Shown here piece by piece: positions 57,120 to 58,658 of a stretch of 64,000 bases of DNA (the stretch's first letter is position 1; every line of letters begins with the position of its first letter). A program made the translations under genes and the position numbers. The notes under the pieces are model-generated. The model had not been told where the DNA came from and did not search any database. It was given only the letters and a program-made list of their open reading frames with translations. Origin of the DNA: Candidatus Omnitrophota bacterium (GTDB lineage Bacteria > Omnitrophota > Gorgyraeia > JABMRN01 > RBG-13-46-9); contig JADHYM010000001.1 of the NCBI GenBank assembly GCA_016782445.1, forward strand, positions 10,212-74,211, in the 5' to 3' direction.

Positions 57120-58658
57120 TCACTTTCCAATACAAAACTTCTCGAAGACGCGCCCTAATATATCAGGCTCAATAGAGTCGCCGAGAATCGATCCCAGGAA
57201 AAATTCCGCCTCCCTGATAAGCAATGCTGATATCTCCCAGGCGCCGGAAGAGGCGCGCTTAAGAAGCGTTAGCGCTTTTTCTACCCTTTTGTGAGCCTCG
57301 GCAAGTTCCCGCGCCTGCCTTAAGCTCGTTACGAAAGACCCTTCCGGCTGCGGCACCCTCCCCCGCCAGATCTTTTCAAGAATAGCCTTCTCTACTGTTT
57401 CGAGGTTCTTTCTTTTTAGTACGGATATCTCTATTATGCTCTTTTCACCTGTAAGCTTTTTTACCGATCCTGTATCGAGTTTTTTTCGGAGGTCTTTTTT
57501 ATTCGCGATCACGATTTTTTCTTTTCCTTTTATGTCTTTAAGAATTCTGGAATCCTCTCCTGTCCAGCGCTTTCCGATATCAAGCATGAAAAGAACGAGA
57601 TCTGCGCGCCTTATATATGAGCGCGCTCTTTTAATGCCATGCCTCTCTACGATTCCTCTTGTATTTGATATGCCTGCCGTATCCGCGATCCGGACAGGCA
57701 TCCCACCTAAGACTACCTCTTCCTCAACAGCATCCCTTGTAGTGCCTGCCACCGGCGTTACGATTACTCTTTGTCTGTTCAAAAATGCGTTCATGAGAGA
57801 GGACTTCCCCGTGTTTGGCTTACCGCATATGACGCAAAGAACGCCCTCTTTGAAAAGCATTCCTTTTTTGGAATCTTTAACCATTTCTTTTATCTTCTTT
57901 TCCGCCTCCTGTAAAGTCTTCAGGATCGCGTCCCGGGGTGCAAATTCTATGTCGTCCTCTGAGAAATCGATGCGTGCCTCAAGTTCCGCTAAAACACTTA
58001 TAAGGCTCTTTCTTAAACCCCGGATCTTTTTGGAGAGCTCGCCCTCAAGCTGAGCTTGCGCGATTTTCATGGAATTTTCTGTTTTAGATTTTATTATATC
58101 CAAAACCGCTTCGGCCTGCGCTAGGTCTATCCTTCCGTTTATGAAAGCCCTTTTCGTGAATTCACCCGGCTGGGCCATGCGCGCGCCTTTTTTAAGAACA
58201 AGTTCGAGCGTTTTGCCTAGCGCGACTATCCCGCCGTGGCAGTTTATCTCCACGACGTCCTCCCTGGTATAACTTCGTGGCGCTTTCATTACCGTCAGTA
58301 TAACCTCGTCAATCACCTCTGTCTTCTGTCTTCCGTCTTCTGTCTTCTGTCTTCTGTCTTCTGTCTTCTGTCTTCCGTCTTCTGTCTTCTGTCTTCTGTC
58401 TTCTGTCTTCTGTCTTCCGTCTTCTGTCTTCTGTCTTCTGTCTTCTGTCTTCTGTCTTACAACGTGCCCGTAGTGGACAGTGTATGTTTTAAAGCCGGTT
58501 ACCTTGCCTTTACTTTTTGGCACAAAAACCTTATCAGCGATAGAAAGCGCCTTCTTCCCGCTTAGGCGCACTATCCCTATGCCGCTTTCGCCGACAGGCG
58601 TCGAAATAGCCGCTATCGTATCCTGTGTGCTATGTAAAAACTCTTTCCGCATAACCAT
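57120..58658 (-). CDS. mnmE: tRNA modification GTPase MnmE carrying a heptad (QKTEDRR)n insertion
   Basis: N-terminal THF-binding domain (DTIAAISTP), G-domain, and C-terminal CIGK. An insertion of about 46 aa is encoded by the 7-nt tandem repeat at 58318-58457. Start set at the internal Met near 58658. Confidence 0.85.
   Translation of the reverse strand: MVMRKEFLHSTQDTIAAISTPVGESGIGIVRLSGKKALSIADKVFVPKSKGKVTGFKTYTVHYGHVVRQKTEDRRQKTEDGRQKTEDRRQKTEDGRQKTEDRRQKTEDGRQKTEVIDEVILTVMKAPRSYTREDVVEINCHGGIVALGKTLELVLKKGARMAQPGEFTKRAFINGRIDLAQAEAVLDIIKSKTENSMKIAQAQLEGELSKKIRGLRKSLISVLAELEARIDFSEDDIEFAPRDAILKTLQEAEKKIKEMVKDSKKGMLFKEGVLCVICGKPNTGKSSLMNAFLNRQRVIVTPVAGTTRDAVEEEVVLGGMPVRIADTAGISNTRGIVERHGIKRARSYIRRADLVLFMLDIGKRWTGEDSRILKDIKGKEKIVIANKKDLRKKLDTGSVKKLTGEKSIIEISVLKRKNLETVEKAILEKIWRGRVPQPEGSFVTSLRQARELAEAHKRVEKALTLLKRASSGAWEISALLIREAEFFLGSILGDSIEPDILGRVFEKFCIGK
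58318..58457. repeat. heptanucleotide tandem repeat (about 19 units of GTCTTCT/GTCTTCC) inside mnmE
   Basis: Read directly from the sequence; translates on the minus strand as (QKTEDRR/QKTEDGR)n. Confidence 0.9.

Follow-up and report, generated by a model that had tools for sequence, protein, structure and literature searches.

Within the 64,000-nucleotide stretch of a Candidatus Omnitrophota genome analysed here (contig JADHYM010000001.1; the whole stretch is called the window below), the gene mnmE, predicted to encode a tRNA-modifying GTPase, contains a long tandem array of a heptanucleotide unit. The array is real, and it encodes a floppy, charged loop read in frame. Our preferred explanation, to which we would assign a probability of about 0.72, is that the array is a tolerated, slippage-prone member of a dispersed heptamer family, sitting in a permissive loop of MnmE and kept in frame by purifying selection. 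Among the orthologues compared, this loop is hypervariable in Omnitrophota and repeatedly colonised by different 7- and 8-nucleotide (nt) arrays, all of them in frame.

Array detection with Tandem Repeats Finder (TRF) over the whole 64-kb window revealed a single strong array in mnmE (Table 1; all positions are window positions). It spans 141 nt, i.e. 47 codons or 3.36 × 42 nt. Dissection into units on the sense strand gave five copies of AAGACAG followed by one AAGACGG, this block occurring three times, and then 15 nt. Because the G variant recurs at each sixth unit, the true period of the array is 42 nt, not 7, and at this period the repeat is perfect. An earlier note on this DNA had described about 19 units at 58318-58457; the location was right, while TRF extends the array to 20.1 copies and the 42-nt super-period had gone unnoticed. 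The 14-nt double unit had 24 matches in a pattern search of the window versus 0.48 expected by chance. Since a 7-nt unit is not made up of whole codons, it is translated in all three phases, which makes the peptide periodic in 7 (here 14) amino acids: RQKTEDR alternates with RQKTEDG through residues 65-111 of 510. The insert has a net charge of +5 with 62% charged residues, in agreement with the charged, seven-residue-periodic, in-frame insertion proposed from the sequence at the outset. Structure of the tract at the RNA or DNA level was considered as an explanation and rejected; the array RNA is predicted to be fully unpaired (z = -0.86), and no Rfam family overlaps the array, the only Rfam matches in the window being two tRNAs elsewhere.

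We simulated gain and loss of units. A change of one or two units in either direction led to a stop 1-3 codons past the array, with products of 109-117 amino acids (aa); changes of three or six units kept the frame and gave a full-length protein, as the frame arithmetic in the earlier note had it. The codons V-I-D of the conserved VIDEV strand, GGTGATTGA, follow the array directly and hold a TGA in both alternative frames; therefore, translation terminates at once after a slip by any number of units other than three or its multiples. Both out-of-frame TGAs are contained in codons of the conserved VIDE motif and thus come with that motif, with nothing special about them.

The open reading frame (ORF) around the array can be read as a complete MnmE, in which all domains and motifs checked are present and the fold agrees; that the array lies inside mnmE was borne out by Pfam, by PDB matches and by the predicted fold. 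The start codon, ATG at 58652, agrees with P0001, and the protein is identical to NCBI MBL7157949.1 from a Candidatus Omnitrophota metagenome-assembled genome (the same sequence as P0121). Three Pfam domains were found: (i) PF10396 TrmE_N, the folate-binding and dimerisation domain (E = 7.9e-42, residues 13-175, split by the insert); (ii) PF12631 MnmE_helical (E = 1.9e-49); (iii) PF01926 MMR_HSR1, the inserted Ras-like G domain (E = 1.7e-23). The G1, G3 and G4 motifs read GKPNTGKS, DTAG and NKKD, and the C-terminus, ...FEKFCIGK, fits the FC(V/I/L)GK motif defined for MnmE (PMC12397908). The best PDB sequence matches were 3geh, 1xzp, 3gee and 9hip, the MnmE proteins of Nostoc, Thermotoga, Chlorobium and E. 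coli, respectively, and every one of these alignments was interrupted exactly at the insert. A Foldseek search with the AlphaFold2 (AF2) model recovered 1xzp_A (E = 4e-35, target-normalised TM-score 0.79) and 9hiq_F (0.85). Thus the window protein has the same three domains, checked motifs and fold as the MnmE/TrmE proteins of 1xzp, 3geh, 3gee and 9hip; the difference is in a hairpin turn, which measures 6-9 residues in the solved structures and is fixed at this length in distant MnmE lineages, whereas through the repeat it reaches ∼50 residues in the window protein.

In the AF2 model, built from 96 homologues (mean predicted local distance difference test score, pLDDT, 84.7), strands 58-67 and 111-122 form a hairpin with pLDDT ∼95, and residues 68-110 are coil with pLDDT 48-55. 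According to this model the repeat would encode an extension at the β-hairpin tip of the MnmE N-terminal domain; mapping of the insertion onto the structure, suggested in the earlier note, places it in the tip loop. The insert is probably a disordered loop protruding from an otherwise normal enzyme. The contact patches seen by cryo-electron microscopy of the MnmE-MnmG complex are the helical domain, the last helix of the N-domain, the hinge helix and residues 1-5 (PMC12397908), and the hairpin with the insert is not among the patches given there.

Close homologues of the window MnmE were all from Omnitrophota. When 120 of them were aligned, 5-53 residues separated HYGH from IDEV, i.e. from 0 to ∼45 extra residues. 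Many of these orthologues have a minimal loop of 5-6 residues; in others the insert is often fully decayed and non-slippery. The earlier note had described the insertion as absent from MnmE homologues; this stands for the solved structures and the distant lineages and fails within Omnitrophota, where many different inserts occupy the site. In 54 inserts of at least 14 aa (query excluded) residue identity at lag 7 was 0.162 in comparison with 0.06-0.09 at all other lags. Such a signal is what heptanucleotide arrays leave in a protein when they are translated in three phases.

Scanning species-representative genomes with a degenerate DNA pattern for FKTYTxHYGH, we retrieved 35 orthologous loci with the labels Omnitrophota or Planctomycetia/Planctomycetales (one extra chance match was in Oscillatoria). 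All 35 were in frame through the insertion site, and ∼11 of these carry a live array of 7- or 8-nt units there. The closest relative (L001), with flanks 90-93% identical to those of the window, has CGAGGGA/CGAAGTA ×7.4 at the same codon and 28 fewer residues. Other live arrays at this codon are AGCAAAG ×7 in L098, AAAAGTC in L099 and L101, and those of L096 and L114, the units AAGGCTG/C and ACAAGGG being included; L102 has ACAGAAG ×8, the unit of the window, though its MnmE is only 44% identical. Octanucleotide arrays of ∼4 copies each (GACACCAA, GACACAAG and GAGCACCA) are present in the MnmE loops of L097 (5951-5984), L103 and L104 (2068-2102). Such arrays are thus not exclusively of period 7. 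A further 8-nt array of L097, at 908-945, is outside the MnmE loop. Over the 35 Omnitrophota loci, period-7 arrays occurred at 5.1 per 100 kb versus 1.1 per 100 kb in distant loci; 13 arrays had period 7, three had period 8 and none had period 6 or 9-12.

In some Omnitrophota the loop is filled in another way. In L085, the FKTYTxHYGH motif at 489-518 is followed by a palindromic element of 81 nt, whose inverted termini are GTCATTGCGAG...CTCGCAATGAC and which is translated in frame as ...IEIASSP...APRNDK...; it resembles a miniature REP/MITE-like insertion and is also seen in proteins P0008 and P0091.

The earlier note had allowed for a contingency-like switch, i.e. a phase-variation locus where slips of one or two units turn MnmE off and on at high frequency as a form of bet-hedging. 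Subpopulations with MnmE off would have a hypomodified wobble U34 and altered decoding, and Omnitrophota would re-create such tracts since heterogeneity is useful. The tract does have the basic property of contingency loci, being slippage-prone with unit changes that shift the frame (a 7-nt unit in 20.1 copies, with truncation at 109-117 aa); it is long, near-perfect and early (codon 65 of 510), and stops follow it directly in both alternative frames. Precedent exists in Haemophilus influenzae, which has heptanucleotide simple sequence repeats (SSRs) in the hmw1A/hmw2A promoters and intragenic (AATTTTG)14 and (AACAACC)8-13 (PMC8262952, PMC2651432), the intragenic ones with known frameshifted alleles (PMC2651432). 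As in mnmE, these are tracts of 10-40 heptanucleotide units, and an intragenic change by a single unit shifts the frame. Moreover, loss-of-function mnmE mutants with reduced virulence are reported in several other bacteria (PMC12397908), and the word ‘essential’ used for mnmE in the earlier note is not established. However, none of the 35 orthologous loci is out of frame, including the ∼11 with live arrays, for which the chance without selection would be ∼(1/3)^11 by our own arithmetic. The H. influenzae tracts, in a host-adapted pathogen, belong to genes for surface structures or uptake, and frameshifted alleles occur among its strains, whereas MnmE is a tRNA-modification enzyme without a frameshifted allele in the relatives; a housekeeping gene is unlike the known contingency genes (surface, restriction-modification, uptake). 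Sister arrays are present in the gene for LeuRS (see below), which nobody would expect to be switched, the decayed inserts of orthologues are of no use for slippage, and the downstream stops come with the conserved VIDE codons. Apparent truncated alleles turned out to be artefacts of gaps, as described next. We consider a switch very unlikely.

The 90%-identity cluster of the MnmE protein also holds members of 482, 398 and 377 aa. The contigs of these members (L120, L119 and L121) belong to the three ENA assemblies ERZ24794666, ERZ24794676 and ERZ24794679, which we compared with the window at the DNA level. Their flanks were 100% identical to the window over ∼7 kb, with the exception of one mismatch in L121 and the array itself. 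In L120 the array is 57 nt, shorter than the 141 nt of the window by two 42-nt blocks (84 nt). Exactly 100 N are present inside the array in L119 (2863-2962) and in L121 (2740-2839). The 398-aa and 377-aa members, considered as off-phase alleles, were rejected as such: their gene calls are short because of the 100-N scaffold gaps inside the array, and they begin exactly at in-frame GTG codons shortly after it. Hence no frameshifted mnmE allele was seen among the four assemblies of the strain; 57 and 141 nt are both in frame, and the rest are N gaps. A metagenome scan gave relatives of no more than 56% identity among the matches listed, and same-species length variants were not among them.

Both resolved lengths equal 15 + 42n nt. 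As judged from assembler behaviour, 57 nt and 141 nt would be the shortest walks through a 42-nt de Bruijn cycle at k = 55 and k = 100-141, respectively. The tract is beyond the resolution of short-read assemblers; with 141 nt, 57 nt and N gaps between identical flanks, real between-sample polymorphism is inseparable here from assembler behaviour. The true length is probably at least 141 nt, with the copy number uncertain; we would expect a length of 15 + 42n nt with n of at least 3. The frame is safe because the length ambiguity comes in 42-nt steps. The suggestion that a slippage-prone tract is constrained to in-frame lengths fits both the 42-nt super-period and the 84-nt difference between the resolved assemblies.

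Could the array, or most of it, be a product of mis-assembly, absent from the organism? The four assemblies do disagree only at the array, and the two lengths match the inferred cycle walks. Still, the common unit and the A5-G pattern are found in all four assemblies, on both sides of the N gaps, and L121 alone has 97 contiguous nt of the array; analogous arrays occupy the same codon in many independent genomes, and a collapse would mean a longer true array, not its absence. This explanation can practically be set aside. Collapse or expansion in assembly, named in the earlier note as grounds for refutation, was found in part with regard to copy number and does not touch the existence of the array. 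The array thus flags a site of unreliable short-read assembly in these genomes; scaffold gaps in it lead gene callers to emit N-terminally truncated MnmE proteins, which may pass for pseudogenes or for phase variants.

Another possibility is that the repeat is kept for its peptide, a charged, basic and flexible arm recruited for contacts with tRNA or a partner or for solubility. The charge of the insert fits with such a role, as does the fact that 40 of the 54 inserts from different lineages are net positive; also, the insertion is kept in all four assemblies of the strain. On the other hand, neither the sequence of the insert nor its length nor even its presence is conserved (the closest relative has another unit and a much shorter insert, and many loops are minimal), AF2 predicts no structure for it, the hairpin lies outside the listed MnmG interfaces and a basic bias is expected from stop-free units rich in A and G. 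We regard an adaptive arm as improbable, though less so than a switch. One more functional idea, self-sensing (five of the seven codons of the unit are read by MnmE-modified tRNAs), was rejected: hydrophilic stop-free heptamers with six purines have 4.5 such codons on average, and the count is similar in one of the two leuS arrays. A high share of MnmE-dependent codons is what purine-rich units give anyway.

The mnmE array does not stand alone, being the largest of a local repeat family. With a threshold of 2.6 copies for perfect arrays, we found eight period-7 segments in the window and none in 50 shuffles, and no such array at periods 6 and 8-15; no other long period is enriched in the window. 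Three period-7 arrays are coding, the one in mnmE and two in leuS (Table 1), and the leuS units ACGACAG and AAGTCAG are each one substitution away from AAGACAG of mnmE. Most of the other arrays occupy short spacers between co-directional ORFs and adjoin a start or stop codon; the array at 3293-3330 lies between ORFs 2266..3294 and 3326..4507, the one at 14380-14411 between 13620..14369 and 14412..15218, and the one at 56435-56474 between 55605..56429 and 56471..56929. Two intergenic unit families were seen, TTTGTCA (71-126, 12749-12798 and 12851-12873) and TTACAGC/TTAAAGC (14380-14411 and 56435-56474). Hence several loci share the same or a related unit in both the coding (mnmE, leuS) and the intergenic families, and the mnmE and leuS arrays, being intragenic, are atypical members of a class otherwise found in spacers at ORF ends.

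Table 1. Period-7 arrays of the window and the parts of mnmE next to the main array
Feature	Position	Strand	Basis or remark
mnmE coding sequence, 510 aa + stop, predicted tRNA U34 cmnm5-modification GTPase	57120..58652	-	Pfam, PDB matches, AF2 fold
Heptanucleotide array in mnmE	58318..58458	- (sense)	TRF: period 7, 20.1 copies, 95% matches, score 261
Codons for FKTYTVHYGH, conserved first hairpin strand directly before the array	58459..58488	-	Alignment of 120 homologues; AF2 strand 58-67
GGTGATTGA, codons V-I-D of the conserved VIDEV strand	58309..58317	-	Directly after the array; TGA in both alternative frames
leuS array (ACGACAG) ×5.1	43350..43385	-	TRF; in frame QTTDDRRQTTD; aligns to variable linker of T. 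thermophilus LeuRS 1h3n
leuS array (AAGTCAG / GGTCAGA) ×4.7	44220..44252	-	TRF; in frame SEVRGQRSE; 3-residue length difference from 1h3n there
Intergenic heptamer arrays	871-921, 3293-3330, 12749-12873, 14380-14411, 30467-30501, 56435-56474, 61589-61649		Spacers of minus-strand ORFs

Some of the spacer arrays deserve a separate comment. (TCAGTTC)3 at 61589-61609 and AACTGATAACTGATTACTGA at 61630-61649 lie in the spacer of the ribonucleotide reductase (RNR) and ychF ORFs as inverted copies of each other separated by 20 nt; AACTGATAACTGATTACTGA is essentially the TAACTGA direct repeat known from Beggiatoaceae, cyanobacteria and Bacteroidetes (PMC4679880). The TTTGTCA family forms a comparable inverted pair with its arrays at 12749-12798 and 12851-12873. 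Between the DUF212 and LysM/YkuD genes lies a spacer with a heptamer array both in the window (56435-56474, GCTGTAA/GCTTTAA on the minus strand) and in L002 (2000-2035, AAGCTAT ×5.1), a relative with MnmE only 71% identical to that of the window; such position-conserved intergenic arrays with related units hint at a possible function. Elsewhere in the window, the RNR ORF (61653-63821, minus strand, open upstream to the window end) has a LAGLIDADG_3 homing-endonuclease domain ahead of the barrel domain, which suggests that it is intein-bearing, and two divergent tRNA genes, 45614-45684 (-) and 45819-45902 (+), lie just upstream of leuS.

With regard to origin, one could speculate that the array was imported from a member of the family and expanded after its arrival, the vehicle being ectopic conversion, template switching or some very small mobile repeat. 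L101, another Omnitrophota metagenome-assembled genome, has one and the same 34-nt array, AAAAGTCAAAAGTCAAAAGGCAAAAGGCAAAAGT, in the MnmE hairpin and in a loop of the adjacent FolC (∼1797-1829 and ∼2777-2809), with the same order of unit variants in the two, which implies copying between loci. The three coding arrays of the window form one unit family, and in the closest relative an entirely different unit occupies the codon in question. The distant orthologue L102 shares the unit of the window. Of the 2340 cyclic heptamer classes, 312 are stop-free and without hydrophobic codons on one strand, and seven of the nine observed units are among these 312; under a uniform draw from them, the chance of such convergence is ∼4%. 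Taken together, the L101 duplicate, the mnmE/leuS unit family and the replaced unit in L001 suggest that arrays can be copied between loci and have not only evolved in place. However, the L101 pair is the only clear duplicate, the same picture could result from ordinary gene conversion between similar A-rich tracts that already existed, and neither flanking target duplications nor an associated enzyme were seen. Import of the mnmE array thus remains a tentative proposal, which we hold to be less probable than not by some distance; it concerns origin only and is compatible with the maintenance of the array as a tolerated insert.

In many bacteria no long SSR class is more abundant than the heptamers, and dispersed families of heptamers have been described (PMC4679880, PMC4692102). 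The heptanucleotide class of prokaryotic long SSRs, in the account of Mrazek et al. 2007 as summarised in these two papers, is mostly intergenic, with unit lengths other than multiples of 3 depleted in ORFs. So far as the summaries go, the window agrees with this class in the 7-nt tandem unit and the excess of period 7 over neighbouring periods, and may also agree with it in a variable or unstable copy number; the mnmE array differs in being inside a conserved housekeeping gene, with in-frame readthrough, and in its unusual length (at least 20 units). The dispersed families include the cyanobacterial STRR of Calothrix, GGGNATC of Xanthomonas and Nostoc, and TAACTGA of Beggiatoaceae and cyanobacteria; MacGregor described repeats that in reverse orientation can be translated into a peptide with 7-aa period (PMC4692102, PMC4679880). 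The window resembles these families in that one unit family occupies many loci, in spacers of co-directional genes beside start or stop codons, whereas the mnmE array belongs to Omnitrophota, has other units and is coding, purine-rich and hydrophilic in its translation. An excess of heptamers, their dispersed families and their translation as repeats are already in the literature (PMC4679880, PMC4692102); as far as we searched, the new points are the phylum, the size of the tract and the repeated occupation of one MnmE loop.

To account for a tolerated insert we propose the following course of events. These genomes would generate or spread 7-nt (and some 8-nt) arrays at many places. The hairpin tip of MnmE would tolerate almost any stop-free hydrophilic insert, probably with little effect on the enzyme, in line with the seven of nine observed units that are stop-free and free of hydrophobic codons. 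Arrays arriving or arising there may survive, expand by slippage, be exchanged for others and decay. Lengths that break the frame would be removed by purifying selection for an intact MnmE, leaving only the three-unit steps that we see. The latest expansions would have been in 6-unit (42-nt) blocks; the 42-nt super-period is the reason to think that the most recent expansions were in-frame blocks. Out-of-frame slips would then be expected as a mutational load giving a truncated protein of ∼110 aa, of which we saw no sign of use by the cell.

Several observations weigh against this explanation. The array, with its 20 or more units, is at least 2.5 times longer than any other at the site or in the window, which a neutral view does not predict. 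The inserts lean basic, and selection, not A-rich codons, could underlie this. The identical arrays of L101 and the unit shared with L102 suggest inter-locus copying besides local slippage. The copy number itself is uncertain, and as the evidence is at the assembly level, low-frequency out-of-frame subpopulations may be present.

On the present evidence the array does not reveal a new regulatory mechanism. If the proposed explanation is true, a mutational habit (formation or spread of heptamers) together with a permissive site would repeatedly rewrite a surface loop of a conserved enzyme across a phylum, with the birth, expansion, replacement and decay of arrays all visible. The MnmE loop would then be useful for studies of microsatellite dynamics, of protein loop evolution and of intrinsically disordered insertions, and the hairpin tip of MnmE would be marked as a safe insertion site for engineering.

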